A stretch of 64,000 nt of DNA from Bdellovibrionales bacterium. Lineage in GTDB: Bacteria > Bdellovibrionota > Bdellovibrionia > Bdellovibrionales > UBA1609. The stretch lies in the NCBI GenBank assembly GCA_965203095.1, contig OZ241877.1, forward strand, positions 1,504,001 to 1,568,000. The letters run 5' to 3'. The notes beneath the pieces were generated by a model. That model had not been told where the DNA came from, did not search any database, and saw nothing but the letters and a program-made list of their open reading frames with translations. The position numbers and the translations under genes were made by a program. Of the stretch, positions 34,557-50,006 are shown in pieces. Within the stretch, counting starts at the first letter, position 1, and each line of letters opens with the position of its first letter.

Positions 34557-36845
34557 ATGAATAAAAAAGATCTAACAGAACGAGATATTTGCACAAAATA
34601 TATTACTCCTGCTATAGAACAGGCGGGTTGGGATAAAATTTTTCAAATAAGGGAAGAGCTTTACTTTACGGACGGAAGGATCCAAGTCCAGGGGCAAAAA
34701 AGCAAGAGGTTGAAGGGCAGGAAGGCAGACTATATTCTTTATAAAAATGACAAGCAAATTGCAGTTATTGAGGCTAAAGATAACAATCACTCTATATCTT
34801 CAGGTATACAACAGGCTTTAGAGTATGCGGATATTTTAGACATTCCCTTTGCTTTTTCCTCAAACGGCGATGGTTTTTTATTCCATGATAAAACATCCGG
34901 TAGAGAAACAGAGTTGCAACTACAAGACTTCCCCTCCCCCGGAAAACTTTGGTCCATTTATAAAAAACATAAAAACCTCAATGAGGAGCAGGAAAAAATC
35001 ATTTTAGAGCCTTACCACAGTGGGGCTGAGGTAAAAGAGCCAAGATATTACCAAAGAATAGCCATTAACAGGGTGGTTGAGGCTATTTCTAAAGGTCAAA
35101 ACAGACTTCTTTTAGTTATGGCCACGGGAACAGGAAAAACCTACACAGCTTTTCAAATCATGTGGAAACTTTGGAAAGCCAAAAAGAAAAAACGAATTTT
35201 ATTTTTAGCAGACAGAAACATTTTAGTTGACCAAAGCCGAAACAATGACTTTGCCCCTTTTAGACATGTAATGACAAAAATCAAAGGGAGAGTGGCGGAT
35301 CCCGCTTACGAAGTTTTTTTATCTTTGTATCAGGCCATTACTGGGGAAGAAGAGAGTAAGAAAATTTTTAAAAAATTCTCTAAGGATTTTTTTGATTTGA
35401 TTGTGATTGATGAATGCCACAGAGGAAGTGCTAAAGAGGACTCCTCTTGGCGGGAAATTTTAGAGTATTTTAACTCTGCAACTCAAATCGGTTTGACAGC
35501 TACTCCAAGAGAGACCAAATATACTTCCAACATTCGTTATTTTGGTGATCCTGTTTATACTTATTCTTTAAAGCAGGGTATAGAAGACGGCTTTTTAGCT
35601 CCCTACAAGGTAATAAGAATTGACATAGATAAAGACATTTATGGCTGGAGGCCGAAAAAGGGCCAGATGGACAAATACGGCCAGCTTATTGAAGACAGAG
35701 AATTTAAACAAAAAGATATGGACAAAAGCCTTGTTCTTGAAAAAAGAACAGAGCTTGTAGCTGAGAAAGTGACTGAGTTTTTAGAGCAAACAGACCTTTT
35801 TCAAAAAACAATTGTTTTTTGTGATGACATAGATCATGCAGAAAGAATGAGGTTGGAGCTTATCCATCAAAACTCTCAAGAAGTTAAAAAAAACAATAAA
35901 TACATTATGAAAATAACAGGTGATGATAAGATAGGAAAAGACGAGCTTGAAAATTTTATCAACCCCGAAAAAAGATATCCTGTAATCGTCACAAGCTCAA
36001 AACTGCTTACAACAGGAGTAGATGCAAGAACATGCAAGTTGATTGTTTTGGACAAAACCATCAACTCCATGTCTGAGTTTAAGCAAATTATAGGGAGAGG
36101 GACTCGTGTGGAAGAGGATTTTGGTAAAATGTTTTTTACAATTATGGACTTCAAGGGAGCTACAAGGCTTTTTAATGATCCTGATTTTGACGGTGAGCCG
36201 GTGGAATTTTACGAGTCAAGACCAGGGAAGCCTATCGTTCCTTCAGGGAATGAAGATAAGCCAGCAGAAAACCCGGATGATTTTGAACCAAGAAAAAAAT
36301 ATTATGTTAAAAACCAGCCTGTTGAAATTATAGGTGAGGAGATAAGATATATCGGAGCTAAGGGCCAACTTATCACTGAGTCTTTTATAGATTACACCAA
36401 AAAAATTGTTTGCAAAAAATATCCCACTTTAAATAAATTCATTACTCATTGGAAGGAGTCAAACAATAAAAAAAAGCTTATAGATGAATTACAGGAAGAG
36501 GGTTTATTGACAATCCCTCTTAAAGAAAAGATCAATCAAAATATAGATGTTTTTGATTTAATAAATTATTTTGTTTTTGGGAAAGAGTTTTTAACAAAAG
36601 AGCAGAGGATAGAAAAAGCTAAAAACTCTTCTGCCTTCTCCCTTTTAGAGATGGATTGCCGGAAAATAATAAGTGAGCTTTTAAAAAAATATTCTCATAA
36701 TGGAGTGGATAGCTTAGAGAATTTGGAAATTCTAAAAACTCCCTCTATGGGCAAATTTGGAACTGCTATGGAAATACTTAATAAATTTAACGGAACAGAA
36801 AAATACATAGAGACCATAAGACAAATACTTAATGAGCTTTATTAA
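34557..36845 (+). CDS. hsdR: Type I restriction enzyme R subunit (EcoAI/EcoEI-like)
   Basis: LTERDICTKYITPA, ADY...VIEAK nuclease motif, MATGTGKT, DECHRG, GLTATP, QIIGRGTR. Confidence 0.95.
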   Translation: MNKKDLTERDICTKYITPAIEQAGWDKIFQIREELYFTDGRIQVQGQKSKRLKGRKADYILYKNDKQIAVIEAKDNNHSISSGIQQALEYADILDIPFAFSSNGDGFLFHDKTSGRETELQLQDFPSPGKLWSIYKKHKNLNEEQEKIILEPYHSGAEVKEPRYYQRIAINRVVEAISKGQNRLLLVMATGTGKTYTAFQIMWKLWKAKKKKRILFLADRNILVDQSRNNDFAPFRHVMTKIKGRVADPAYEVFLSLYQAITGEEESKKIFKKFSKDFFDLIVIDECHRGSAKEDSSWREILEYFNSATQIGLTATPRETKYTSNIRYFGDPVYTYSLKQGIEDGFLAPYKVIRIDIDKDIYGWRPKKGQMDKYGQLIEDREFKQKDMDKSLVLEKRTELVAEKVTEFLEQTDLFQKTIVFCDDIDHAERMRLELIHQNSQEVKKNNKYIMKITGDDKIGKDELENFINPEKRYPVIVTSSKLLTTGVDARTCKLIVLDKTINSMSEFKQIIGRGTRVEEDFGKMFFTIMDFKGATRLFNDPDFDGEPVEFYESRPGKPIVPSGNEDKPAENPDDFEPRKKYYVKNQPVEIIGEEIRYIGAKGQLITESFIDYTKKIVCKKYPTLNKFITHWKESNNKKKLIDELQEEGLLTIPLKEKINQNIDVFDLINYFVFGKEFLTKEQRIEKAKNSSAFSLLEMDCRKIISELLKKYSHNGVDSLENLEILKTPSMGKFGTAMEILNKFNGTEKYIETIRQILNELY

Positions 36846-36870
36846 ACTAAGTAATAAACAGAGTAAAAAT

Positions 36871-38310
36871 ATGTCACTACAAAACCTTGTAAAATCCATA
36901 CAAAACATTATGAGAAAAGATGCAGGAGTTAATGGGGACGCTCAAAGGATTGAGCAGTTGGGTTGGATTTTTTTCTTAAAGATATTTAGTGATAAAGAGA
37001 TTGAAAGCCAAACTCTAAAAAAAAACTATCGTCCCTCTATTCCAAAAAAATACTTATGGCAAAGTTGGGCCAGCAATCCTGAAGGCCGGACAGGAGATGA
37101 GTTATTGAGTTTTATCAATAATGATTTGTTTCCGCGGTTAAAAAACATGTCTTTGAATATTCAGACAAATCCAAAAGGGCTTATCATTAAGGAGGTTTTT
37201 CAGGATTCAAATAATTATATGAAAAACGGCACACTTTTAAGGCAAGTCATTAACAAAGTGAATGGAATTGATTTTAATAAAAAAGAGGATTTGCATATTT
37301 TTGGGGATATTTACGAAAATTTTTTAAAGGACTTACAAGGTGCTGGGAATGCGGGAGAATTTTACACACCAAGACCAGTCACTCAATTTATGACAGAAAT
37401 GATTAGCCCTCAGTTAGGGGAAAAAGTTTTAGATCCTGCTTGCGGGACAGGAGGTTTTTTATCCTGTGCCACCCAATATATCAGAAAACATTATGTGGAG
37501 ACAGTGAGAGACAGAAAAACACTTCAAAAACAAATTCATGGAGTTGAGAAAAAGCCTCTTCCTCATCTTCTTTGTATGACCAATATGCTTTTGCATGAGA
37601 TTGAAATTCCAACACAGATTATCAGGGGGAATAAACTGGCAAAAAGGGTTACAGAATATAAAGTTAAGGACAGGGTGGATGTTATTTTAACAAATCCTCC
37701 TTTTGGCGGAAGTGAAGAGGAGGGGATTAAGGCTAATTTTCCAAAACCTTTTCAAACCAGCGAGACAGCGGATTTGTTTCTTGTATTGATTATAAATTTG
37801 CTAAAAGAAGGAGGCCGAGCGGGTGTTGTTTTGCCTAATGGTTGTTTATCTCAAGCAGGAGTCACGGCAAGAATTAGGCAAGAGCTTTTAGAGACTTGCA
37901 ATCTTCATACAATAGTGAGACTGCCTCAGGGGGTTTTTAGCCCTTACTCTTCTATCCATACCAATCTTTTGTTTTTTAATAAAGGTCCTATCACAAAAAA
38001 AATATGGTATTATGAATTGCCTTTGCCTCAAGGTTTAAAATCATACAACAAAGGGAATCCCATTCAGCATAAAGAGTTTGAGCCAGTTAAAGAGTGGTTT
38101 AAATACAGAAAAGCCAACAAACATGCTTGGCAGGTTTCCATAGAGGAAATAAAGAAAAACGGTTATATTCTGGATATTAAAAACCCTATTATGGATAAAG
38201 AGGAATATGCCGACCCCGCAGTTCTTGAAAAAGAATATTTGCTTTTAAAAAAGAAAAACAAAAAACTGCTGAATGAAATAAAACAAAAAATAGAAAAAGC
38301 CTTACTTTGA
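36871..38310 (+). CDS. hsdM: Type I R-M methyltransferase (N6-adenine) M subunit
   Basis: RKDAGVNGDAQRIEQ, GEFYTPR, DPACGTGGFL, TNPPFGG; start may be 36832 or 36871. Confidence 0.95.
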   Translation: MSLQNLVKSIQNIMRKDAGVNGDAQRIEQLGWIFFLKIFSDKEIESQTLKKNYRPSIPKKYLWQSWASNPEGRTGDELLSFINNDLFPRLKNMSLNIQTNPKGLIIKEVFQDSNNYMKNGTLLRQVINKVNGIDFNKKEDLHIFGDIYENFLKDLQGAGNAGEFYTPRPVTQFMTEMISPQLGEKVLDPACGTGGFLSCATQYIRKHYVETVRDRKTLQKQIHGVEKKPLPHLLCMTNMLLHEIEIPTQIIRGNKLAKRVTEYKVKDRVDVILTNPPFGGSEEEGIKANFPKPFQTSETADLFLVLIINLLKEGGRAGVVLPNGCLSQAGVTARIRQELLETCNLHTIVRLPQGVFSPYSSIHTNLLFFNKGPITKKIWYYELPLPQGLKSYNKGNPIQHKEFEPVKEWFKYRKANKHAWQVSIEEIKKNGYILDIKNPIMDKEEYADPAVLEKEYLLLKKKNKKLLNEIKQKIEKALL

Positions 38311-38539
38311 ACTAAAAAACGGCTAAAAAACTTTATTTTTTCCATTTTTAAGACAAAAAATCCTGTTTTTTTCTATTTTTACAAAAAAACCCAATGGACT
38401 TTGTTGGGTTTTTATATTAAAATCATCTTATGGATAAAATCAGCATTAAAAAACTGCAACAATATGCAAAAAAACAGCATATTAACATTACTCCTTATAT
38501 TTTGGCACTTACAACATGAATAAACAGGCTTGAAAAATA

Positions 38540-40099
38540 GTGAGAATGCAATCAAGTAATGATATTTTATTTAGGAACTTTGATGTTTTTTCTCATTCAG
38601 AAAAAAATCTAAATAATTTTAAGTCTTTAATTTTTAAATTAGCCCTTCAGGGAAAGCTGAATTTTCAAAAACTATCAGAAGGCCGTATTAAAAAACCTTT
38701 ACAAGCTCTTGTTGAGGAGCAAAAAGCTTATCTCAAAAGACAAGGCATCCTTTTTGAAGAACAACCAAACAGCCCCTGGCCTATAGTAGAGTTAGGAAAA
38801 TTATTAGACTATGAACAACCCACAAATTATATTGTTAATTCTACTAATTATAAAGATGAATATAAAACCCCTGTTTTGACTGCTGGGAAAAGTTTTTTAC
38901 TGGGTTGGACAAATGAAAAAACAGGCATTTTTCCAAAAGAAAAATTGCCAGTAATAATTTTTGATGATTTTACAACGGCGACAAAATTTGTGGATTTTCT
39001 GTTTAAAGTCAAATCTTCAGCTATGAAAATTTTGCATTTATCCAATATTTACAATTCTCATGAATCAAGTCATTCCCGCGAAAGCGGGAATCCACAGAAC
39101 ATAACAAAAGAAGATAAAAATACTTATATAAAATTTATTTTCTATATCATGCAAAGTATTGAATTTGATACTAAAACACATAAACGATATTGGATTTCTC
39201 AATACTCAAAAATAAAAATCCCACTTCCTCCATTAGCAATTCAAAAAGAAATTGTCGCTCTTATGGAGAAATGCACTTTGTTAGAAACTCAGATAAAGGA
39301 AAAATCCCAAAAGCAAAAGGAGTTTTCCAAATCCTCCATGCATTTCATTACTCAGGCTCAAGATAAAAAAGAGACAGCTTATCATTGGGAATTTTTGAAA
39401 AACAATTTTAAAGATATTTTATATTCTGAAAGCGGAGCAAAGCAGTTTAAGGCTATGGCCTTCCAGCTTTGCCTTAAAGGAAAGCTGAATTTTCAAAAAC
39501 TATCAACAGGTCGTATCCAACAGCCCTTACAAACTCTTGTTGAGGAGCAAAAACAGTATCTCAAAAAACAAGGCAGACCTTTTGACAAACAGTTAGACAG
39601 CCCCTGGCCTATAGTGGAATTAGGCGAAAGCTTAGAAAAGATAAAGTATACAAATAAAATTAAAAAATCTAACTTTTTAAAAAAAGGAGTATTTCCAATT
39701 ATCGACCAATCAGAGAACTTTATTTCTGGATATTGGAATAATCAAAAAGATGTGTTTAAAGTAAATAGTCCAATTATTATTTTTGGAGATCATACTTGTT
39801 GTTTTAAATATATTGATTTTGATTTTGTTCTTGGAGCTGACGGTGTAAAAATTATTCAACCTAAAAAACATTTTTTTCCATTTTTTTTATATTATTTATT
39901 ATTGAATACTAAACTAACAAATTTAGGTTATTCAAGGCATTTTAAATCTTTAAAAAAAATAAAAATCCCACTTCCTCCTTTGGCAATTCAAAAAGAAATT
40001 GTCTCTCTTATGGAATATGCAGAAAACATAGAAAAGCAAATCCAAAAAGAAAAAAACCTAAGCCTTCAACTATCTCAATCTTTATCTTATCATCTATGA
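38540..40099 (+). CDS. hsdS: Type I R-M specificity subunit with two TRDs
   Basis: Duplicated conserved regions (GKLNFQKLS...SPWPIVELG; KIKIPLPPLAIQKEIV) flanking two TRDs. Confidence 0.9.
   Translation: MRMQSSNDILFRNFDVFSHSEKNLNNFKSLIFKLALQGKLNFQKLSEGRIKKPLQALVEEQKAYLKRQGILFEEQPNSPWPIVELGKLLDYEQPTNYIVNSTNYKDEYKTPVLTAGKSFLLGWTNEKTGIFPKEKLPVIIFDDFTTATKFVDFLFKVKSSAMKILHLSNIYNSHESSHSRESGNPQNITKEDKNTYIKFIFYIMQSIEFDTKTHKRYWISQYSKIKIPLPPLAIQKEIVALMEKCTLLETQIKEKSQKQKEFSKSSMHFITQAQDKKETAYHWEFLKNNFKDILYSESGAKQFKAMAFQLCLKGKLNFQKLSTGRIQQPLQTLVEEQKQYLKKQGRPFDKQLDSPWPIVELGESLEKIKYTNKIKKSNFLKKGVFPIIDQSENFISGYWNNQKDVFKVNSPIIIFGDHTCCFKYIDFDFVLGADGVKIIQPKKHFFPFFLYYLLLNTKLTNLGYSRHFKSLKKIKIPLPPLAIQKEIVSLMEYAENIEKQIQKEKNLSLQLSQSLSYHL
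39069..39094. repeat. dRS3/REP-like palindrome in frame within hsdS
   Basis: GTCATTCCCGCGAAAGCGGGAATCCA, translated as SHSRESGNP. Confidence 0.85.
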
Positions 40100-40291: not shown

Positions 40292-41992
40292 ATGTCTTTG
40301 GAAACGATATTAAAAAATTTAGATCCATCTCTATTTCAAAGTGTCATCTTAGGAATATTGGCGATTTTTATTCCTTTTTCAATAGTTTTTTTAATGGACA
40401 TTTTAGATCCCAAAAAACAAAGAAATGAGTTTGAAAAAATGGTTTTAGTTGAACAAGTTTTGAGTGTTAGAATGGTATTTTGGCTTTCAGTATTGGGACT
40501 TGGTTTTCTGGCTTTTTTTTCTGGCAAAAATGTATCAGATATCACAAAGTTAATTGTTGTTTTTATTTCAGCAGTTCTTATATTTTATCTTTGGATACCA
40601 TTCAAAAGAGTCTTGAAATTCTCTGAAGGTTATAAGACAGAATTTGAAATTAAATTTTTAAAAGGATTACAATTATTTAAAATATTGCCCTTTTCTAATA
40701 GACAAAAAATAGAAAAAATACATAGGTCATGGAAGTCTCTATGGGCAGAAAAATCAAAAGATTACTCAATCCACAGTGAAAAAGAATTTACAAAGTTATT
40801 TATCCGTCATATTGATAATTTGATAGATCATGAACAGTGGAATGAGATTATTTCTCTAATTGATGCATATATAAAAAATCTTGATAAAAGGAGTATATTT
40901 TCAGTTAAATATGATATATTCCCAAAGCTTTTTGAATGGGATAGAAATTTTTTAATATTACAAAAAAAGCTTCAAAAAAAGAATAATATTAAAGAAAGGA
41001 TTGAAAAATCAATTTCAAAAAAATATTTTCCTACATTAAAAAAATACACTTTAAGAATTCTTGAAAAATTTGTTATTAAATCTAACTCTTTTTATAGTGG
41101 AAAATATTTTCGTTTCAAGCTCTTTCCTGAATTGGTAAAATTCTTATTGTATAATCAATTTTTATCTCATCAATTATTTGAAGGTTTTAAAAATTTTATT
41201 GACAAAATTGAAGAAAAATTAGAAAAATGTAAAAATAAAATTAAAAAAAATAAACTAAAAAAAGATATGGAAAGTTGGTTTTCTAATTTTTGCCCTGTAT
41301 TGTTTGAAAATATTTATAAATCACCTAATAAAGAGACCATTTGGAGTCTTAATTTTCCTAAAGAATGGAAAATAACACTTGAAAATTCAAATGCGAAGGT
41401 CCCACGAATTATTTTAAAATGTTTTTTGAAATGGACTCAGAATCGCAATATTTTTAAAACAGAATATTTAAAAGATAATGATGAAGCTCTAAATGAAGTC
41501 ATAAAAGGCATTTTTCCAAATTATCATACAGAGACTTTTTTATCATTTTTGATGCTTCTCTTCTCTTATGAGATTAAAGATGCAATTCAGAAAATACCAA
41601 GATTTTCTATTATAAAAGTTGATCTTGTTTCTTCCTCTGGTGAAAAAAGTTGGGAGGAAATTTCTCACTTAATTGAATTGAAAGCAGAAGAGAAAAAGAG
41701 AGAAACAGTTGATCTGATTTTTACATATTTTAAAAATTTCCGACCTTTTAGAGTATATAAATCTGATCTTACAGAGGAACAATTAAAAAATTGGGGGGAG
41801 CATTCTGAAAATCAAAAAAATAAAATTCTTAACAAGCAGAGAAAAACAAAATTAGAAAATATTTTAAATGAATTAAATAGCAAAGATATAATAGATTTTT
41901 GTAAAAACTCTGAATATCGTAAAGTTCAAAGAAAGTATTTTATTGAATTGATTAAATTGTTTCTTGAGTCAATTCATAAACATTTTCCTTAA
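40292..41992 (+). CDS. Hypothetical protein with three N-terminal TM helices and a large helical soluble region
   Basis: 566-aa ORF, GGAGG RBS, very AT-rich. Confidence 0.7.
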   Translation: MSLETILKNLDPSLFQSVILGILAIFIPFSIVFLMDILDPKKQRNEFEKMVLVEQVLSVRMVFWLSVLGLGFLAFFSGKNVSDITKLIVVFISAVLIFYLWIPFKRVLKFSEGYKTEFEIKFLKGLQLFKILPFSNRQKIEKIHRSWKSLWAEKSKDYSIHSEKEFTKLFIRHIDNLIDHEQWNEIISLIDAYIKNLDKRSIFSVKYDIFPKLFEWDRNFLILQKKLQKKNNIKERIEKSISKKYFPTLKKYTLRILEKFVIKSNSFYSGKYFRFKLFPELVKFLLYNQFLSHQLFEGFKNFIDKIEEKLEKCKNKIKKNKLKKDMESWFSNFCPVLFENIYKSPNKETIWSLNFPKEWKITLENSNAKVPRIILKCFLKWTQNRNIFKTEYLKDNDEALNEVIKGIFPNYHTETFLSFLMLLFSYEIKDAIQKIPRFSIIKVDLVSSSGEKSWEEISHLIELKAEEKKRETVDLIFTYFKNFRPFRVYKSDLTEEQLKNWGEHSENQKNKILNKQRKTKLENILNELNSKDIIDFCKNSEYRKVQRKYFIELIKLFLESIHKHFP

Positions 41993-42343: not shown

Positions 42344-43957
42344 ATGACAGGCAAACAAATCAAAAATCTTATCTTAACAGGTGAAGGCTATCACATAGAA
42401 TTTAAACAAGCTTTAGATAAAAGCCTTATTGATACGGTGTGTGCTTTTGCCAACTCTTCCGGTGGTTATATTTTAATGGGTGTTGCTGATGACAAAACTA
42501 TCAAAGGCATTGACACCAGCAATCGCTTTCGCTCCAAAATTCAAGACCTATTGGGCCAGCTACAACCCAAATTGGATATATCCGTTGAGGTTAAAAAAAA
42601 CCTTATGGTTATTCATGTTCCTGAAGGGCAGGAAAAGCCTTATGCTGGCTCCAGAGGATTTTTTATGAGAATAGGGGCAAATTCTCAAAAAATGACAAGG
42701 AATGAGATTATCAGTTTTTTTAAAAAAGAGGGACGAGTGAATTTTGAGGAGCTAATCAATGAGAAAGCTAATTTTGAAAAGGACTTTGATCCAAAAGCTT
42801 TTAAACATTTTTTAAAGCTTTCAGGTATTAGTCCAACTATTAAACGAGAAACACTTTTGCAGAATTTAGATTGCTTGAGCTATGATAAAAAACTTACAAA
42901 TTTAGGGGTTTTATTTTTTGCTAAAGATATAGATTTTATTATGAACTATGCTCTTGTAGATTGTGTTTTATTTAGAGGAACAGAGAAAGTTAAAATTTTG
43001 GACAGAAAACAATACAAAGGCCATCTTATTGAAAATATTGAAAGTGCTTTGGCTTTTGTTCAAAGGCATACCAATACAGAATATGTAATTACCGGCCAAC
43101 CTCGAAGAGAAGAAATCCCTGATTATCCTGAAACTGCTTTGCGGGAAGCGATTGTCAATGCCGTTTGCCATAGGGATTATTTTGAAAAACGATGCCATGT
43201 TGTTGTGGAGGTATTTGCTAACAGGGTGGAAATTTATAACCCCGGTGGTTTGCCTAATGGGCTTGATCCAAAAAAGTTTGGAACAAAAAGCGTGCCCCGC
43301 AATCTCTTAATTGCCTCAATGCTACATAGAGCAAATTACATAGAGCAAGCTGGGACAGGGATTAACCGTATTAAAGAAGCCTTAGCCAAACATAAAAAAC
43401 AGCTGGATCTGGAAATCCAATACAGCGATGATAGTCTTTTTTACAGTGTTATTTTTAGGAAAAAAGACATGGCAAAAGCCACTTACAGGGGATTGGTAAA
43501 AAACCCTAACAAGAGGTTGGTAAAAATTACCCAGAAAACAACTCAGAAAAGGGGTCAAGATACTACCCAGAAAGTCTTGATTGGAACTTCCATAAATAGG
43601 GTAAAAATCCCTAAAAACAGGATAAAATCTGCTAAAAAAAACATAATCATTAGGAACACTACTCAGAGAACCACTCAAAAAAGTAAGTTTCGGTCTATTT
43701 TCGGTGTAAATGCCAATAAGTTTCGGTCTATTTTCGGTGTAAATGCCAGCAATTTTCAATCTATTTTCGGTGTAAATACTCTCAACACAGCTTGGTTAAT
43801 TCATAAAAATCCAAATATAACAGCTAAAGAAATCTCAGAGAAATTATCTGTCACTAAACGAACTGCCGAAAATTATCTTTCTAAATTAAAAATGGCTAAA
43901 CATATTGTAAGGCTTGGTTCTGATAAAACAGGGCATTGGGAGATTATAAAAAAATAA
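42344..43957 (+). CDS. AlbA_2 (Schlafen-like) + HATPase_c_4 + C-terminal HTH protein (RecG-C-like ATP-dependent regulator)
   Basis: GEGYHIEFK, VCAFANSSGG..LMGVAD, REAIVNAVCHRDY, NPGGL, RN, GTGI, RLGSDKTGHWEI. Confidence 0.85.
   Translation: MTGKQIKNLILTGEGYHIEFKQALDKSLIDTVCAFANSSGGYILMGVADDKTIKGIDTSNRFRSKIQDLLGQLQPKLDISVEVKKNLMVIHVPEGQEKPYAGSRGFFMRIGANSQKMTRNEIISFFKKEGRVNFEELINEKANFEKDFDPKAFKHFLKLSGISPTIKRETLLQNLDCLSYDKKLTNLGVLFFAKDIDFIMNYALVDCVLFRGTEKVKILDRKQYKGHLIENIESALAFVQRHTNTEYVITGQPRREEIPDYPETALREAIVNAVCHRDYFEKRCHVVVEVFANRVEIYNPGGLPNGLDPKKFGTKSVPRNLLIASMLHRANYIEQAGTGINRIKEALAKHKKQLDLEIQYSDDSLFYSVIFRKKDMAKATYRGLVKNPNKRLVKITQKTTQKRGQDTTQKVLIGTSINRVKIPKNRIKSAKKNIIIRNTTQRTTQKSKFRSIFGVNANKFRSIFGVNASNFQSIFGVNTLNTAWLIHKNPNITAKEISEKLSVTKRTAENYLSKLKMAKHIVRLGSDKTGHWEIIKK
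43685..43777 (+). repeat. 33-bp in-frame tandem repeat, 3 copies (KFRSIFGVNAN)
   Basis: AAGTTTCGGTCTATTTTCGGTGTAAATGCCAAT and two variants. Confidence 0.85.
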
Positions 43958-43963
43958 AAACCA

Positions 43964-44008
43964 GTCATTCCCGCCTTGAGCGGGAATCCAAACTAAAAGG
44001 AGGAAAAA
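43964..44008 (+). promoter_or_regulatory. Cassette leader 1: REP palindrome (CCTTGAG loop variant) + RBS
   Basis: GTCATTCCCGCCTTGAGCGGGAATCCA-AACTAA-AAGGAGGAAAAA-ATG. Confidence 0.7.
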
Positions 44009-44254
44009 ATGACAGTTAAAGAATTTAAGGAACAATTAAAAAAATATCCCGATAATATGCGAGTTGTAGTTAGCGGATATGAATCCGGTTGGGACGATAT
44101 AAAGATAGACAGTTTATCCATAAGAACAGTTTTTTTAAACTATGGAAAAAAGGATTATGAGGGACAGCATGAAGACGCAGACGGCTTTACCAAAAAGAAA
44201 GCTGGAAAATTAAAAACAGCCAAAGTTTTAGCCATTCCTCGATCTTCTAATTAG
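44009..44254 (+). CDS. Small hypothetical protein (phage-like, MTVKE... type)
   Basis: 81-aa ORF with strong RBS; stop codon coincides with the left end of the MITE. Confidence 0.65.
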   Translation: MTVKEFKEQLKKYPDNMRVVVSGYESGWDDIKIDSLSIRTVFLNYGKKDYEGQHEDADGFTKKKAGKLKTAKVLAIPRSSN

Positions 44255-44387
44255 TTTTTCGTGAAACAGTATCCTCTTAGCTTTCTATCCAAAGGCTGTT
44301 CCATGAGGGGCCAAGGCATTTTTCCGCGAACAAGTTTTTATGGATTTCCGCTTTCGCGAAAATGACTTGCTTTTTCACGGAGGACTA
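44252..44387. mobile_element. MITE-like element, 136 bp, TA ends, degenerate TIR, containing a reversed REP
   Basis: TAGTTTTTCGTGAAACA ... TTTTTCACGGAGGACTA; internal CCATGAGGGGCCAAGGCATT and GGATTTCCGCTTTCGCGAAAATGAC. Confidence 0.6.
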
Positions 44388-44430
44388 ATTAAACTGGAAA
44401 TGGTTTTTAAACAAAAGGAGGAAAATAAAA

Positions 44431-45486
44431 ATGTCAGATCAAAAAAATAATCATGAAGTATTCCCTTGTTGCCCTATATGGTGGTCAGAACTTAAATCAC
44501 AAAGGCATATTCAAGGAGGTTTAGACCCTATATATGAGCTTGACAGTCCTCGAGCTGGCGGAAAATATACTGTTTTGTCTTCTTTTTCACAACTTCGTGA
44601 GACTAATAAATATAAAGAACTTTTTAATGACAAAGAAAAGATTGTTTTGTCAGCTTGGATAGCCAGAGAAAACTTAAAGGGCAATGTCCCTGATCTAACA
44701 TCCATGATAGGAGATAATAGAAGAGATGCGGAGGATTATTTTTTAAATAGATTGCCCTCCAAACCCAATCCAACAGAGAGAGCTTATTTACTTTTAGAGG
44801 GACTTGTAAAAAAAAGCACTTTTATTGGAAAAACTTTTTTAAGCCATGATATGCCATATTTAGAAGGTCCTGAAATACTTTGTTCAGATGACGGTGAAAA
44901 ATATGCTTTCTTTTATGCTCTTTCTTATTGTGATGATAATAAAGAAATGAATTATCTTTTAGATTACTTAAGGAAGGAGGAGTTCATCCATAATATAGGA
45001 AAATCTAAAGATTTTCAAGTCACAGTCAAAGGCTTTGAGCAAATCAATACAGTTTCAAATACCAACTCTAAAACCGCTTTTATTGCCATGTGGATTCACT
45101 CTTCTATGGACAAGCTTTATAGAAGTATTGAAACAGCAGTCAAACAGGCAGGATATAAATCTTTGAGAATTGACAAAAAAGAGCATATCCAGAAAATTGA
45201 TGATGAGGTTTTAGCAGAAATCAAAAAAGCCCGATTTGTTATTTGTGATCTCACTTCAGAAGAGGGCAAACCCAGAGGAAGTGTTTATTTTGAGGCTGGC
45301 TATGCTTTAGGAAAAGACATTTCCATTATATGGACTTGTAAGGAAAGCCTAAAAGAAGAGTTAGCTTTTGACATTCGCCAATATAACTGTTTATTTTGGG
45401 AAGAGAATAAAATGGACGATTTTGTTAAAAAACTTCAACAAAGGATTGAGAATGCCATAGGCAAAGGGCCTTTAAAACAAAAATAA
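44431..45486 (+). CDS. Protein with C-terminal nucleoside 2-deoxyribosyltransferase-like (NDT/TIR-like) domain
   Basis: AFIAMW, 'RIDKKEH', 'FVICDLT...RGSVYFEAGYALG', 'AFDIRQYN'. Confidence 0.7.
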   Translation: MSDQKNNHEVFPCCPIWWSELKSQRHIQGGLDPIYELDSPRAGGKYTVLSSFSQLRETNKYKELFNDKEKIVLSAWIARENLKGNVPDLTSMIGDNRRDAEDYFLNRLPSKPNPTERAYLLLEGLVKKSTFIGKTFLSHDMPYLEGPEILCSDDGEKYAFFYALSYCDDNKEMNYLLDYLRKEEFIHNIGKSKDFQVTVKGFEQINTVSNTNSKTAFIAMWIHSSMDKLYRSIETAVKQAGYKSLRIDKKEHIQKIDDEVLAEIKKARFVICDLTSEEGKPRGSVYFEAGYALGKDISIIWTCKESLKEELAFDIRQYNCLFWEENKMDDFVKKLQQRIENAIGKGPLKQK

Positions 45487-45493
45487 CAAACAA

Positions 45494-45542
45494 TCATTCC
45501 CGCCTTGAGCGGGAATCCAGAACAAACCAGAAGGAGGAAAAA
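45494..45542 (+). promoter_or_regulatory. Cassette leader 3: REP palindrome (CCTTGAG loop variant) + RBS
   Basis: TCATTCCCGCCTTGAGCGGGAATCCA-GAACAAACCAG-AAGGAGGAAAAA-ATG. Confidence 0.7.
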
Positions 45543-45971
45543 ATGAATCAAAAACAAGAAAAAATAACAGCAAAAGAAAAATGTCGTCAGAGGCTTTTAA
45601 GCCTTGAAAATGCTCTGGAATCTTTTAAAGAAGCTCATTCTTTTTACTTAAAAGATCCTGAAAATAAAATTTACAGTATGGCTTTAATCCAAAGTTTTGA
45701 GTTTTCTTTTGAGTTAAGCTGGGTGGCTTTAAAATATTTTATACAATATAAAGACCTTGCTACATTCAAATACGCAACGGATATTATTAAACAAGCTTTT
45801 AATAAGGATATAATTAAAGATGATAATCTTTGGATGGATATGTTAGAGTGTCGAAATAAATTATCTCATGTTTATGACGAGCAAATAGCTCGAAAATTTG
45901 TTAAAGAAATATCAAATAAGTATATAAAAGAGATAGATAATATTTATCATTTTTTAAAAAAGGAGCTTTAA
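45543..45971 (+). CDS. HEPN / nucleotidyltransferase substrate-binding protein (HI0074-like toxin)
   Basis: 'LIQSFEFSFELSWVALK', 'WMDMLECRNKLSHVYDE' (RxxxxH). Confidence 0.88.
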   Translation: MNQKQEKITAKEKCRQRLLSLENALESFKEAHSFYLKDPENKIYSMALIQSFEFSFELSWVALKYFIQYKDLATFKYATDIIKQAFNKDIIKDDNLWMDMLECRNKLSHVYDEQIARKFVKEISNKYIKEIDNIYHFLKKEL

Positions 45972-46372
45972 TGCCTTTTGGTCTTACTAAAAAAACTGTT
46001 AAACAGTTAAAAGATCTGTTTAAAAAATATCCTGAAATAAGCCAAGTAAAAATCTATGGTTCCAGGGCGAGAGGCGATTATAAAAGAGGTTCAGATATTG
46101 ATTTGGTTTTTTTTTCTGAATCCACAAAGGAGCTGTCATTAAGGTTGTCATGGGAGTTAAAAGCACTTAACACACTTTATTTGTTTGATATTGTAAACTA
46201 TAAAACCCTTAGCAATAACTATCTAAAAAAAGAAATAGATAAATATGGAAAAGTCTTTTATTTAAGAAATTCTAAAAATTCTATCTCACAAAAAACTCGC
46301 CATTCTCACCTTGAGCGGGAATCCAAAACAAACCAGAAGGAGGAAAATAAAAATGTCAGATCAAAAAAATAA
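45971..46372 (+). CDS. Minimal nucleotidyltransferase (MNT, HI0073-like antitoxin) with a read-through tail
   Basis: YGSRARGDYKRGSDIDL (GSX10DXD); translationally coupled to the HEPN gene (TAATG). Confidence 0.88.
   Translation: MPFGLTKKTVKQLKDLFKKYPEISQVKIYGSRARGDYKRGSDIDLVFFSESTKELSLRLSWELKALNTLYLFDIVNYKTLSNNYLKKEIDKYGKVFYLRNSKNSISQKTRHSHLERESKTNQKEENKNVRSKK
46301..46352 (+). promoter_or_regulatory. Cassette leader 4: degenerate REP (CCTTGAG loop variant) + RBS
   Basis: CATTCTCACCTTGAGCGGGAATCCA-AAACAAACCAG-AAGGAGGAAAATAAAA-ATG. Confidence 0.7.
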
Positions 46373-47120
46373 GAAGAATATTGAATCCAACCAAAAATAT
46401 ACTCCCCCTGAGTATAAAAAAAAGGCTTTTCACTGCCCACATTGTGAAGTGTATGCGAATCAGAATTGGAAAAATATTGTTTCAGAGGACCGAGAGTATG
46501 TGTATATGAATATGGATGATTGGTTATTGAGAACAGCCAGAAGATACAATCTAAATACAATGAATGAGTCGATTTTACAAAAAATTATAAAGGTATATAG
46601 TTCGCTTTTTATTGGAGGAATTGAACTTGCCCTTTGTGCTCGCTGTAAAAAATATTCTATATGGGTAGATGGGCAAATGGTTTATCCCAATATGCTCACA
46701 GCTCCTTTACCTATTGAGGAGATGCCGGAATCTGTAAAAAAGCTTTATAATGAGGCCAGAGAAATTTCTGGCAAGTCACCAAGGGGAGCTTGTGCCTTGT
46801 TAAGGCTGGCAGTTCAGCAACTTGTTAAAGAGTTAGGCGAAGATGAAAATAATTTAAGTAAAGCCATTGGCAATTTAGTCCAAAAAGGTTTACCAAAGAG
46901 AATACAAGAAGCTTTGGATTCTGTTAGAGTTATTGGCAACAATGCTGTTCATCCCGGCAAGATAAATATAGAAGATAAACCAGAGATAACAGATACTCTT
47001 TTTATGCTTATCAATTTTATTTCAGAAAAAATGTTTAAAGATGAGCAAAAAGTTGAGAAAATTTTTAGCTCTTTGCCTAAAAATTCTAAAAAAGCAACAG
47101 AACAAAGAGATCAAAAATGA
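46353..47120 (+). CDS. DUF4145-like HEPN protein with N-terminal Zn ribbon (start reassigned to 46353)
   Basis: CPHC...CARC; 'LYNEAR..SPRGACALLRLAVQ', 'LDSVRVIGNNAVHPG'. Confidence 0.8.
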   Translation: MSDQKNKKNIESNQKYTPPEYKKKAFHCPHCEVYANQNWKNIVSEDREYVYMNMDDWLLRTARRYNLNTMNESILQKIIKVYSSLFIGGIELALCARCKKYSIWVDGQMVYPNMLTAPLPIEEMPESVKKLYNEAREISGKSPRGACALLRLAVQQLVKELGEDENNLSKAIGNLVQKGLPKRIQEALDSVRVIGNNAVHPGKINIEDKPEITDTLFMLINFISEKMFKDEQKVEKIFSSLPKNSKKATEQRDQK

Positions 47121-47251
47121 ATCCAAAAAATCAGTTATTTAAAAAACAAAAAATCACTATTGAAGGTTTTTTTAAGACTATGCTAAATAAACTAATGACC
47201 GGAAAAATCCGAGTCCATAAACTGGGTATGAATACAAAACCTATGGAATAA
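47117..47251 (+). pseudogene. Orphan C-terminal fragment of a type I HsdS-like subunit (44 aa)
   Basis: MNPKNQLFKKQKITIEGFFKTMLNKLMTGKIRVHKL...; LMTGKIRV is the typical HsdS C-terminus. Confidence 0.55.
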
Positions 47252-47257
47252 TAAAAA

Positions 47258-49081
47258 ATGGAACAAGCTATACTTAAAGAATTATATAATATTTTAGATC
47301 AATACAAGAAGCCGAGTTTCTTAATAGAAAGAAAAATCCATAGATGCATAGAAAGCTTTATCAAAGAAAAATTTAAAGACAGTAAATTATCGGCAAATTC
47401 TCCATTAAACTATGAAACAAGAGCTTTTGCTTTTGGGGAAAGGGATAATTGCCCGGAGGAATGGGGAAATGTATCATATAGCCCGCTCATAGGGAATATA
47501 GATCCTATTACAAAAAAATATCAAACATCTTATCCAGGCATAAGTCAAATTACTCCTGAAGTATTAAATTATTGGGAAGAACGATCTTCTGAAGTAAGCA
47601 ATCCTATTTTACAATGTCGTTATGCCGGGCTTGTATGGGATTTTTCGCCAAAAATAAGAGGTAAAAAAGCAGATATATTTATAGCTTATAAGTTTATTGA
47701 TTCCATAATCAAAATGGCTGAGCTTGGAGGAGATAGGTTTTTAAAATATAAACTGGAAAGGGCTTTAAGGCTTGCTGTTTCCATCAACAACAGGGACAGA
47801 ATTTCATCTCTAAAAGACACTATTATAAACTATGAGGACACTCACTCTGAAGATAATAAGTCAGGAACATGGGGTTATTCTTTTGACTTATTGATCGGTG
47901 ATAAAGATTTATATAAAAAAATTGAATTAAAAAAAGAGCAAGAAAATAAAATCATAAAAAATCTTGAAAAAAGGCTGACATTGCTTTCTGACAAAGATTC
48001 GGATGTTTTTAGCCCGTATAATGTTGAACATATTATTTCAAAACTGGTTCCTTATTATAATAATAGAAATGATAAGAAAAATATGAAAAGGGTTTTATTG
48101 ATATATCGGGATTCTTTTTTATCTATTCTTGAAAAAGGAATTGGAATACCAGGAAGCGTTTGGCTGGAAAAAGTCAGAAAAATTTTATTTCAATATGGTT
48201 TATCTCAAGAGGCAAAAGATATAGAAGAAAATCTAAGAAAAGCCCAAAAAGAAGATTTAAAACTTCTTAAAAAACATAAAATTCCTATTAACATCCCAGG
48301 AGAAAAAGTTGATGATTATATTAAAGGGCTTGATGAGCAAACCCTCTTTGAAGCATTGAATACAATAGCTATATCTTTTATCCCTGACAAAGATCAAAGT
48401 AAAGAGATAGTTCATGAAATTGCTCAGAAACATCCTCTCCAATTTATAATATCATCAAGCAATATTATGGATCATACTGGGAGAAAAGTTGCTGAAGTTG
48501 GACCTTTACAAGAGGATTTAGACGGTCGCATTATTTATCAAATGAAACAATCACTTCTATTAACTTGTTATATGATTGAATTGGGCTTAAATCACCTTGA
48601 GAAGACAAAACTTCTTAATGCGGACACACTTGCAAAGCATTTATTTGAGTCGCCATTTTTTTTAAAAGAGCAGTATCAAATAATAAAAGAAGGTTTGATT
48701 GCTTATTTCAATAAGAATTATATTGCAAGTTGCTCTGTGCTGATTCCTCAAGTTGAATCCGTCATTAGAGAAATTATGGTTGTTGCTGGAGGGGTGATAT
48801 ATCAACCCTCAAGATCATCAAATGAAAAAGGATTAAATTTAAGACCTTTAGGTTCTTTGTTGAGAGATGAGGTATTTATTAACATTTTTGAAGAATTTAA
48901 TAAAAATATTCCTATTTATTTTCAGATTCTTTTAATTGATCCAATAGGTTTTAATTTTAGAAACAATATTTGTCATGGTCATTTTCCTGCTGATCATTTT
49001 AATAAAACCGTTGCAAATTATATTATTCACATATTATTGATTTTGTCCATATTCAAAAAAAGCGAAGAGAAAAAAGCTTAA
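47258..49081 (+). CDS. DUF4209-like protein with C-terminal HEPN-type motif
   Basis: 'LIPQVESVIR', 'LIDPIGFNFRNNICHG' (RxxxxH). Confidence 0.7.
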   Translation: MEQAILKELYNILDQYKKPSFLIERKIHRCIESFIKEKFKDSKLSANSPLNYETRAFAFGERDNCPEEWGNVSYSPLIGNIDPITKKYQTSYPGISQITPEVLNYWEERSSEVSNPILQCRYAGLVWDFSPKIRGKKADIFIAYKFIDSIIKMAELGGDRFLKYKLERALRLAVSINNRDRISSLKDTIINYEDTHSEDNKSGTWGYSFDLLIGDKDLYKKIELKKEQENKIIKNLEKRLTLLSDKDSDVFSPYNVEHIISKLVPYYNNRNDKKNMKRVLLIYRDSFLSILEKGIGIPGSVWLEKVRKILFQYGLSQEAKDIEENLRKAQKEDLKLLKKHKIPINIPGEKVDDYIKGLDEQTLFEALNTIAISFIPDKDQSKEIVHEIAQKHPLQFIISSSNIMDHTGRKVAEVGPLQEDLDGRIIYQMKQSLLLTCYMIELGLNHLEKTKLLNADTLAKHLFESPFFLKEQYQIIKEGLIAYFNKNYIASCSVLIPQVESVIREIMVVAGGVIYQPSRSSNEKGLNLRPLGSLLRDEVFINIFEEFNKNIPIYFQILLIDPIGFNFRNNICHGHFPADHFNKTVANYIIHILLILSIFKKSEEKKA

Positions 49082-49154
49082 GGATAATTTTTGTTTGTGA
49101 ATTAATAAGTTTGTTTGGGTTTTTATCTTTTTGTTAAAGAAGGAGGTTTAGGGA

Positions 49155-50006
49155 ATGAATGATTTTAGGAAAAGTGATTTTGATAAAATTATGGAATTAT
49201 ATAAAAGCTGGCGAGATTGTGAACCTTTGCCGGAGGAAAACCATAGGGCTTTATGGCAATGGATCCGTATGCGGTTTAATCATCTGTCCAATAAGTTTGA
49301 GGGCAATACTCTCACTTATAGCGAAACTCAACTGCTTTTAATTCATGGGCGGGCTTCCGGTGATCATGAACTGAGGGAATATGAAGAGATGAAAGCTCAT
49401 GACCTGGCCTTTGAGTATATTCGCAAATTGGCTAAAGAGGCCAGGCTTATTGGTGAAGGGGATATTAGAGACCTCAATAAAATTTGCCTTAAAGAAACTT
49501 TTTATAAAGTGACTAAAACTCCAACTGGTGAGCTGAGTAGAAAAAAAATCATTCCGGGAAAATATAAAACTCAGCCCAACCATGTTTTAACAAAAACAGG
49601 GCAGATTTTTCAGTTTGCCTTGCCGGAGGAAACTCCTGCTCTTATGGCAGATTTGTCTATAAGGATTCAAAACTGGTTAAAGCAAAGCACAGAGGACAAA
49701 CATAAAAATCTTGTCTCTTTTTTAGCAGATCTTCATAAAAGGTTTATCCTTATTCATCCTTTTGATGATGGCAATGGGCGGGTGGTTCGTCTTCTTCTGA
49801 ATTATATCCTTATCCGCTTAGATTTTTTGCCTATGGTTTTAGACAATCGGGAGGAATATATTAAGTCCATTCAGTTTGCAGATACTGGCGATATAAGTAA
49901 GCTTGAAAAATTATTTGCTGACAATATAAGCCTTATGCTTGAAAGAGGCATTTATGCGAAAAACAACAAGCTGGATTTGTCTACATTCCCATTTTCAAAG
50001 GATTGA
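49155..50006 (+). CDS. Fic-domain protein (AMPylase family)
   Basis: HPFDDGNGRVVR catalytic motif; SNKFEGNTLT; AAGGAGG RBS. Confidence 0.92.
   Translation: MNDFRKSDFDKIMELYKSWRDCEPLPEENHRALWQWIRMRFNHLSNKFEGNTLTYSETQLLLIHGRASGDHELREYEEMKAHDLAFEYIRKLAKEARLIGEGDIRDLNKICLKETFYKVTKTPTGELSRKKIIPGKYKTQPNHVLTKTGQIFQFALPEETPALMADLSIRIQNWLKQSTEDKHKNLVSFLADLHKRFILIHPFDDGNGRVVRLLLNYILIRLDFLPMVLDNREEYIKSIQFADTGDISKLEKLFADNISLMLERGIYAKNNKLDLSTFPFSKD

Follow-up and report, generated by a model that had tools for sequence, protein, structure and literature searches.

The window, by which the whole stretch of 64,000 nucleotides that was analysed is meant, contains a defence island of co-oriented genes downstream of a type I RM operon. 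Both direct reading and a repeat search found three modules in this island (43964-44011, 45494-45545 and 46300-46355), each consisting of a REP palindrome, a spacer, AAGGAGG and ATG and each lying ahead of an unrelated gene, as had been stated in the original prediction. The features are as follows.

34557..40099, + strand: upstream type I RM operon, with an hsdR-like gene (34557-36845, labelled from sequence and position), hsdM (36832-38310) and hsdS (38540-40099)
42344..43957, + strand: AlbA_2 / RecG C-terminal / HTH gene, cargo, with homologues in the RM loci of relatives
43952..43994, + strand: module 1, a 43-bp insert with a CGTC-type REP (43964-43990) before a pre-existing Shine-Dalgarno sequence (43997-44003), from alignment with the relative G239
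44009..44254, + strand: phage-like 81-aa protein, cargo (weak PHROG match; Atlas clusters mostly viral)
44248..44387, no strand assigned: MITE-like dispersed mosaic repeat, 81% match to G000:C1:1152789-1152930 (G000 being this genome)
44409..44450, + strand: start block copy 1, Shine-Dalgarno sequence and first codons, 95% over 42 nt and exact over 36 nt against 46331-46372
44431..45486, + strand: 351-aa protein with a TIR/NDT-like C-terminal domain, cargo (PADLOC Effector TIR, E=2e-11; Atlas)
45494..45541, + strand: module 2, REP, A/C spacer and Shine-Dalgarno sequence, the direct-repeat copy to the left of HEPN-MNT
45543..45971, + strand: HEPN-like nucleotidyltransferase substrate-binding subunit (PF08780 and TIGR01987 above cut-off)
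45971..46372, + strand: MNT nucleotidyltransferase (Polbeta), domain end near residue 101, with the frame continuing through module 3
46300..46372, + strand: module 3, degenerate REP, spacer and Shine-Dalgarno sequence (46300-46347), then start block copy 2
46353..47120, + strand: zinc-finger and DUF4145 (HEPN-like) protein, PD-T7-4/RAZR-like, predicted anti-phage, cargo (PADLOC PD-T7-4, E=1.9e-77)
47117..47251, + strand: second HsdS gene, C-terminal remnant (PADLOC Specificity_I positions 379-413 of 428)
47258..50006, + strand: DUF4209 gene (47258-49081) and Fic gene (49155-50006), cargo without a module

The cargo labels proposed earlier (HEPN-MNT, DUF4145, NDT-like and a small phage-like ORF) were borne out by domain and profile matches. 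The 46353 gene is predicted from its translation to encode a PD-T7-4/RAZR protein, as it has two CxxC motifs (a Cys4 zinc finger), DUF4145 and R-x7-H, in line with the cited part of the RAZR description (PMC13017515). The 81-aa gene is present in 5 and the 351-aa gene in 12 of 108 family genomes, and the window has no match to structured RNA families in Rfam. The HsdS remnant matches the HsdS ends of four relatives (G002, G198, G200 and G239) at 49-57%, and module 3 sits where the HsdS body appears to have been lost. Judged from sequence, this part of the window is probably the segment of embedded genes from a second type I RM operon, which has collapsed with the loss of hsdM, hsdR and most of hsdS.

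The modules share more than a palindrome. Modules 1 and 2 begin 6 and 7 bp past the upstream stop codon, the distances originally given, and module 3 lies inside the MNT read-through frame, not behind a stop. Modules 2 and 3 are identical at 44 of 48 nt and flank HEPN-MNT, so that repeated blocks do bracket cargo as direct repeats. Shared identity among the modules starts at the 5' edge of the REP and extends only 3', and between modules 2 and 3 it continues for 21 nt beyond the REP tail. This suggests that insertion of a REP alone is insufficient and that copying is needed. The 10-nt A/C spacer was said to occur twice, and it is joined to a Shine-Dalgarno sequence in modules 2 and 3 only, a third match elsewhere with 2 mismatches being unrelated. 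The spacer has moderate likeness to the G200 linker (rank 4 of 221), and as part of a longer repeat it gave 3 matches of moderate similarity, in G200 only (1 of 5 genomes). The fourth gene of the original prediction, at 44431, also has the RBS block, lying behind a mosaic repeat that holds a reversed degenerate REP palindrome (44342-44366). An exact 36-nt RBS/start block is common to it and the non-homologous 46353 gene. The HEPN-MNT unit delimited by modules 2 and 3 measures 806 bp, and the 351aa-HEPN-MNT unit delimited by the two start blocks measures 1922 bp. At least 20 exact nt across the start codon are shared by 128 gene pairs in total, of which only 3 are non-homologous, this pair among them.

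The REP family in the genome

Modules 1 and 2 fit family 2 of the CGTC REPs as set out in section 6 of Di Nocera et al. 2013 (PMC3733652), with a GTC-type tag, an 8-bp stem that is AT-first, a 5-nt loop and a CCA tail. Families 1 and 2 include Neisseria dRS3/NTS, and the palindrome is dRS3-like, as the original prediction held. Like the CGTC REPs, the repeats here come with no dedicated transposase and occur as dispersed copies, dimers and in-frame insertions. Unlike those REPs as described in the cited parts of that paper, three copies here share their 3' flank and Shine-Dalgarno sequence and bracket defence genes.

Genome-wide, 151 oriented REP hits were found compared to 5 in one shuffled genome, which indicates that REP abundance is not due to chance. 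The module loop variant (CCTTGAG) was thought to be confined to the three junctions. This is true within the window but not in the genome, where it has 24 copies among 29 matches at no more than 3 mismatches. The link proposed between this variant and an RBS also fails genome-wide, as 21 of the 24 copies have no RBS behind them and only the three island copies precede a Shine-Dalgarno sequence. When all REPs were considered, 2 of 151 were ahead of a Shine-Dalgarno sequence by regex, in addition to module 3, and all of these are in the island. Target site duplication was not supported as a general REP feature (flanking direct repeats at 4.8% vs 3.0% in the null, no clear enrichment). The module was rejected as a lineage-wide device, being found in 0 of 8 congeners and 0 of 104 family genomes and as 2 single matches in 300 genomes. 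A looser module pattern gave 5 matches, two of them overlapping, in 2 of the 5 REP-bearing g42 genomes. Two metagenome matches were set aside as unrelated, since they are a half-palindrome before one gene in DNA of 55-58% GC.

Separately, in-frame REPs are enriched in the RM genes of this genome (4/14 vs 14/1034, with crude ORF calls). The hsdS gene of the upstream operon carries one of the 4-nt-loop type at 39072-39091. No published report of such a bias was found.

Relatives, reads and recombinases

The idea of a variable defence-gene array was supported by the relatives, among which both content and order differ. By comparison, the family layout is hsdM, variable defence cargo, (MNT-)hsdS, further cargo and Fic. 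The order is 351aa-AlbA-81aa-hsdS remnant in G239, hsdM-351aa-81aa-AlbA in G198 (which also has DUF4145-DUF4209-Fic) and hsdM-351aa-HEPN-like-MNT::hsdS in G200, and in both G232 and G009 hsdM is accompanied by the 81-aa gene and a HEPN-like gene, whose order is reversed between the two. G002 and G200 encode MNT-HsdS fusions, and the G200 linker carries the same loop variant. Stand-alone MNT homologues in three relatives end at 101-104 aa, so a former fusion to HsdS is not required for the MNT in the window. Only 76 codons of HsdS are left in G239, and a REP lies close to the join.

Alignment with G239 showed that its AlbA-to-81-aa junction has the Shine-Dalgarno sequence and is without the 43-bp REP insert. 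This RBS was therefore not supplied by the repeat, contrary to the proposal that the repeat carries a ready-made translation start. Of the 19 homologous gene starts scored in relatives, just 1 has a full REP ahead of it, a conservative count, as four homologues without an in-frame ATG (one being a 351-aa homologue) were unscored and the regex also missed module 3. This suggests that shuffling does not need the palindrome. By eye, the DUF4145 gene of G198 has half a REP upstream. The leader is native to the DUF4145 homologues, of which two of three begin MS(D/N)QVNK, and seven homologues of the 351-aa gene start differently. In G006, which is REP-free, a 236-bp direct repeat precedes unrelated Fic and DUF4209 genes. 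Of 11 shared-start pairs in relatives, 8 were set aside as spurious ATGs in the REP arrays of G190 and one as a G009 repeat.

Read contigs span module 2 (X2 record 13) and module 3 (X5 record 28) with no differences, and a divergent strain (X4 record 19, 59 differences in 885 nt) retains the order 351aa-module 2-HEPN-MNT. Among the joints listed (15 of 75, and of the filled ones 12 of 20), none ran from module to module and no excision was seen, in contigs that drop rare variants. Two read sets have an AlbA-like gene in frame after the SD/start end of the module (joint 44014 to 42336, 85% likeness, low depth of 3.7 and 6.1), and this joint may come from another organism. A joint from 45522 to 44331 was rejected as a repeat artefact because its filler matches a mosaic repeat copy at G000:C1:869809. 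A loose end at 45531 was seen in run X1, which gave short low-depth pieces only, and depth differed between bins.

In the searched genome, which is 90% complete, the three PF00589 genes scored 109.8, 97.1 and 32.3 with TIGR02249 against a cut-off of 265, and have XerC, XerD and XerA-like proteins as best hits, the third being an unassigned phage-like enzyme. No matches were found to the IS110 families PF02371 and PF01548 or to the Y1/RAYT family PF01797. One gene with a serine-recombinase domain is present, far from the locus, and an IS110-like ORF was recognised by eye in the congener G005. An attC site consists of RYYYAAC and GTTRRRY cores with an imperfect bottom-strand hairpin. No attC core motif was found on the plus strand at any of the 7 junctions, and the stem is a perfect 8 bp.

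Origin of the shared junctions

The explanation favoured here, which is probably though by no means certainly correct, is that short-homology recombination, and not an integron, copied the junction blocks while cargo was being exchanged in a variable defence island. A REP of the CGTC/dRS3 type would have inserted in A/C-rich junction DNA before an existing Shine-Dalgarno sequence, as the G239 alignment shows for module 1. Local copying of junction blocks (REP, spacer and Shine-Dalgarno sequence, or Shine-Dalgarno sequence and first codons) would then have accompanied the gain or swapping of cargo, probably by RecA-type or short-homology exchange between the islands of related strains or by unequal crossing-over, and each gained unit would have been left between direct repeats. 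In one such event the DUF4145 gene could have taken the place of the HsdS body, leaving the MNT read-through and the HsdS tail. By analogy with PeSL cassettes, the 36-48-nt repeats may serve as crossovers for further loss or exchange without a dedicated integrase. Genes for recA, dprA and a comEC-like protein are present in the genome, and 36-48 nt is short for RecA. A point against this explanation is that gene conversion without gene movement would yield the same shared blocks.

A much less probable account is that the REPs merely decorate the junctions, having inserted independently in A/C-rich spacers past stop codons, with gene conversion homogenising the starts and the sites never acting as crossover points. 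A REP directly before a Shine-Dalgarno sequence and ATG was found at 29 of 122 loci, drawn from many phyla and from phages. Nearly all are single, often within ordinary operons, and such REPs sit near the 3' ends of upstream genes in the cited parts of PMC3733652. The 7-nt direct repeat that flanks module 2 also agrees with insertion. However, only the REPs of the island precede a Shine-Dalgarno sequence in this genome, the identity past the REP requires copying, flanking repeats are not clearly enriched overall, and module 3 lies at the point from which the HsdS body appears to have been lost.

It is more doubtful still that an Ssn-type GIY-YIG nuclease cut incoming ssDNA 5' of the REP and that the resulting fragments of REP, Shine-Dalgarno sequence and gene annealed to a resident REP, so that defence genes would be delivered together with a translation start. 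According to the cited parts of Chenal et al. 2025 (PMC11893778), the site at which SsnA cleaves ssDNA is a few bases 5' of the NTS/dRS3 hairpin, and the enzyme acts on transforming DNA, which would suit modules whose identity runs 3' from the REP edge, but cutting lowers integration. Of 108 family genomes, 4 have Ssn-like genes, which adjoin REPs in every case and in one belong to an RM island that holds 33 REPs within 20 kb, whereas no match to the Ssn-like protein of G190 was found in this genome (tblastn/search) or in 9 congeners. The hsdS REP is an exact match to the published SRM, and the genome has 31 SRM matches vs 3 in shuffles. The module variant is at least 2 bases off: modules 1 and 2 are 2 substitutions away from the SRM pattern, and for module 3 the distance exceeds 3. 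The absence of the module pattern from the 104 family genomes and the footprint in REP-free G006 also argue against such capture. That CGTC REPs are anchors for integrase-free capture of defence genes in the family, via the Ssn nucleases of some co-occurring relatives and recombination of REP-headed fragments into RM islands with a translation start of their own, is doubtful to the same degree; if true, it would also explain the pile-up of REPs in hsdS and the enrichment in other RM genes.

A role in expression, where a 5' hairpin before an open Shine-Dalgarno sequence protects or insulates the cargo mRNA or ends antisense transcription, is improbable. The 8-9 bp hairpin does fold locally, leaving the Shine-Dalgarno sequence of module 2 outside the stem, and both module 1 and module 2 have terminator-like scores on the minus strand. 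However, terminator-like counts are near the shuffle level (10 vs 5.7 +/- 2.6), the decayed stem of module 3 with its two substitutions barely folds (DNA -2.5 vs -9.1 kcal/mol), and homologous genes in relatives mostly have no REP.

The integron-like or Piv/IS110 cassette array of the original prediction, in which the hairpin is the att site of a recombinase located elsewhere or lost, is largely refuted and very improbable: co-oriented genes with oriented hairpins between them, the listing of dRS3 among the targets of the transposase of the Neisseria Nf phage (PMC4471427, cited part), an incomplete genome and the G005 ORF would favour it, but IntI, IS110, Y1/RAYT genes and attC cores were not found, the 27-nt hairpin has no extrahelical bases, and 21 of 24 loop-variant copies are not cassette borders.

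Relation to known systems

The data are closest in kind to systems that are already described. Tandem co-oriented accessory genes delimited by short repeated sites are also the form of integrons and CALIN. SCC-like tandem defence cassettes (PMC11470126, cited part) resemble the island in that short repeated sites delimit co-oriented defence genes. Unlike in both, no IntI, attC or cognate recombinase was found for the island, and relatives without the REPs also shuffle cargo. As in the PeSL cassettes of T4-type phages (Arbiol et al. 2010, PMC2839356), a block running from stop codon to stem-loop to Shine-Dalgarno sequence and ATG stands before unrelated genes in a hyperplastic region, and the cited parts of that paper describe recombination between copies that shuffles the cargo. 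The island differs in having only 3-4 copies, a bacterial chromosome as its setting, a mobile-REP hairpin and no sigma-70 promoter in the modules (none of 40 promoter-like sites overlaps one), and no mini-circles were seen for this locus. Variable cargo co-oriented between or beside hsd genes is known from defence genes embedded in type I RM systems (Payne et al. 2024, 10.1101/2024.01.29.577857). Unlike those examples, the host operon of this island no longer has hsdM, hsdR or the greater part of hsdS, and junction repeats are not a subject of the cited part of that study.

Each part of the locus is already known, whether the CGTC REP, the RM-embedded cargo or the PeSL-like shuffling. The preference of in-frame REPs for RM genes is a testable side observation. 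Base-level documentation of how type I RM operons gain and lose genes is poor, and the nested direct repeats of this island, together with the matched empty junction in a relative, make it a tractable test of short homology driving the turnover of defence genes.

Junction modules and the repeat they contain

Three modules, each made of a REP, a short A/C spacer, AAGGAGG, an A-run and ATG, stand before the genes at 44009, 45543 and 46353 in the genome studied here (G000; 1.80 Mb, 38% GC, completeness 90%; window G000:C1:1504001-1568000), as the original prediction described. Modules 1 and 2 begin 6 bp and 7 bp after the upstream stop, also as described, and module 3 lies within the MNT reading frame. 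The stem of module 3 has two substitutions (DNA fold of -2.5 vs -9.1 kcal/mol), and modules 2 and 3 are identical at 44 of 48 nt. Because read contigs cross both modules 2 and 3 with zero differences, these are not assembly artefacts; no read piece spanned module 1 among those listed.

The geometry of the palindrome (GTC tag, 8-bp stem, 5-nt loop, CCA tail) fits the CGTC family 2 REPs as described in the available text of PMC3733652, which also places Neisseria dRS3 in the CGTC group; the proposed likeness to dRS3 holds. The wider REP family gave 151 oriented matches vs 5 in one shuffled genome, most with a 4-nt loop and often inside mosaic repeats. The loop variant had been seen in the window only at the three junctions, but 24 copies with the same loop occur in G000 among 29 genome matches (at most 3 mismatches), and only the 3 island copies are followed by a Shine-Dalgarno sequence (SD) and ATG.

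The ribosome-binding block noted at a fourth gene proved to be a 36-nt exact block, covering the SD and first codons, common to the genes at 44431 and 46353. This sharing is unusual: among 802 SD-led ORFs of G000, 128 gene pairs had at least 20 exact bases in common across the ATG, 125 of these were paralogues, leaving 3 that were not, this pair among them. The sole other non-homologous exact sharing of a start block (42 nt) links G000:C1:571996 with 184742 and 362541, the partner being a duplicated 95-aa ORF. Direct repeats of 48 nt, 806 bp apart, bracket HEPN-MNT, and 42-nt repeats with a spacing of 1922 bp bracket the 351aa-HEPN-MNT unit.

A variable cargo region and a resident start site

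Downstream (3') of the type I RM operon the cargo runs AlbA/RecG-C/HTH, 81-aa, TIR/NDT-like (351 aa), HEPN-MNT, PD-T7-4/RAZR-like (DUF4145), a 44-codon ORF, DUF4209 and Fic. The 44-codon ORF corresponds to the C terminus of an HsdS subunit. In relatives the same cargo genes lie within type I RM operons, and their order differs from genome to genome. The most plausible interpretation is that the array is cargo of a second type I RM operon, now collapsed. Type I RM systems with embedded variable defence genes have already been described (10.1101/2024.01.29.577857, available text).

Type I RM operon of the window and cargo orders in related genomes
Window, 34557-40099: type I RM operon, upstream of the cargo array
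G239: 351aa-AlbA-81aa-hsdS remnant
G198: hsdM-351aa-81aa-AlbA-MNT-hsdS; at another place DUF4145-DUF4209-Fic
G200: hsdM-351aa-HEPN-like-MNT::hsdS
G232: hsdM-81aa-HEPN-like
G009: hsdM-HEPN-like-81aa-hsdS
G006: hsdM-351aa-Fic-DUF4209
G002: hsdM-HEPN-MNT::hsdS

Two further features of the region are a 566-aa gene (40292-41992, GC 24-27%) between hsdS and the cargo array, with no match in Pfam, PADLOC or NCBIfam, and three in-frame 33-bp tandem copies in the linker region of the AlbA gene (43684-43782).

Content and order vary among relatives, and the homologous starts mostly lack the repeat: a full REP precedes 1 of 19 starts homologous to those of the four module-bearing genes (in G202), and a half REP, judged by eye, another 1 of 19. 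The AlbA-to-81-aa junction recurs in G239 with SD and start shared, and the window differs in the alignment by a single 43-bp insert containing the REP. At this junction the REP was inserted ahead of a resident SD, and the idea that the palindrome supplies a ready-made ribosome-binding site does not stand. None of 8 congeners and none of 104 family genomes contained the exact module pattern. A REP before an SD recurs, mostly singly, at 29 of 122 loci examined (GTDB and viral contigs), in unrelated phyla and often within ordinary operons; small GIY-YIG-like ORFs (labelled by eye) lie downstream of five. On one viral/phage contig (L162:2987-5760) three same-strand REPs each abut a purine-rich site and ATG, two of them before small ORFs that lie 5' of a lambda-type portal gene.

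Copying beyond the hairpin

Junction blocks were duplicated locally, and copying past the hairpin is what still needs explaining. Two of 3 DUF4145 homologues begin like the 46353 leader, which by this comparison appears native to the DUF4145 gene, and 7 homologues of the 351-aa gene have different starts; from this we infer that the DUF4145 gene was probably the source of the block and the 351-aa gene its recipient. Module 3 lies about 12 codons beyond the MNT domain, where G002 and G200 have their MNT-HsdS linker. The G200 linker has the same REP loop variant, with flanks ranking only 4 of 221 in likeness, and in G239 only 76 codons of HsdS are left, with a REP close to the join. Two read sets (two samples) place an AlbA-like gene after the SD/start end of module 1, at low depth, with an 85% threshold and the left extent not displayed; the 13 in-frame codons between resemble the DUF4145 leader, and this evidence is weak.

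The footprint also arises without REPs. In G006, which had no REP matches, two unrelated genes, Fic and DUF4209, are preceded by a 236-bp direct repeat (L024:8162-8397, 9293-9528) that contains a GIY-YIG-like mini gene of 84 aa and a shared leader. The mini gene also occurs downstream of DUF4145 in G190. In G011 an MNT gene (L033:6087-6437) opens with a leader similar to the start of HEPN in the window, as would be expected after an in-frame deletion of the HEPN body.

We consider it moderately probable that short-homology or unequal recombination left the duplications behind as cargo was exchanged, and the duplicated blocks could seed further recombination. G000 has recA, a comEC-like gene and dprA. 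The proposed shuffling is alike in manner to that of PeSLs of T4-type phages; however, the PeSL promoter described in the available text of PMC2839356 is missing, so the modules are not PeSLs. Counting against exchange, there was no module-to-module joint among the 15 joints listed out of 75, and a divergent strain (59 differences in 885 nt) retains the order across module 2.

Alternative explanations

Passive REP insertion plus gene conversion is an unlikely explanation of the modules. The boldest remaining reading, capture assisted by Ssn, is more doubtful still. According to the available text of PMC11893778, the SsnA cleavage site in single-stranded DNA lies a few bases 5' of the NTS hairpin, and module-to-module identity begins at the REP edge where the enzyme would cut. 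Of 108 family genomes, 4 have Ssn-like genes, every one beside REPs. On crude ORF calls, 4 of the 14 long RM genes contain an in-frame REP, compared with 14 of the other 1034 (Fisher p=5.5e-5; p=9e-4 when length is taken into account); among relatives, 5 of 13 HsdS ORFs do. However, no Ssn-like gene was found in G000 or its genus, the module variant does not fit the SRM pattern published there, and cutting is reported in the same text to lower integration.

RM genes of G000 with in-frame REPs
G000:C1:75758-78436
G000:C1:540509-544219
G000:C1:677783-681436
Window, 38540-40099

Two of the in-frame-REP ORFs in G000 hold 3-4 copies each, and two large ORFs at G000:C1:753871-762421 hold one and two. 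Two MNT::HsdS fusions (728 aa, L224:9891-12077; 735 aa, L226, reverse strand) have linkers enlarged by REP-derived low-complexity peptide repeats. A type I RM island in G190 (L195:4300-18400) has 33 REPs in 20 kb, hsdS and BRO-N segments duplicated between REP arrays, and an Ssn-like GIY-YIG gene flanked by REPs.

An expression role for the module is very improbable. The integron-type system originally proposed is the least credible reading: in G000 (90% complete) the best matches of the three tyrosine recombinases are XerC, XerD and an unassigned phage-like enzyme, and their scores of 109.8, 97.1 and 32.3 bits fall short of the integron-integrase cut-off (265), the IS110 and Y1/RAYT families have no matches, the one resolvase-domain gene is 570 kb distant, the attC core motif as generally defined is absent from the plus strand at 7 of 7 junctions, and Rfam has no match in the window.

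The feature is real and made of known parts, and their arrangement is mildly new.
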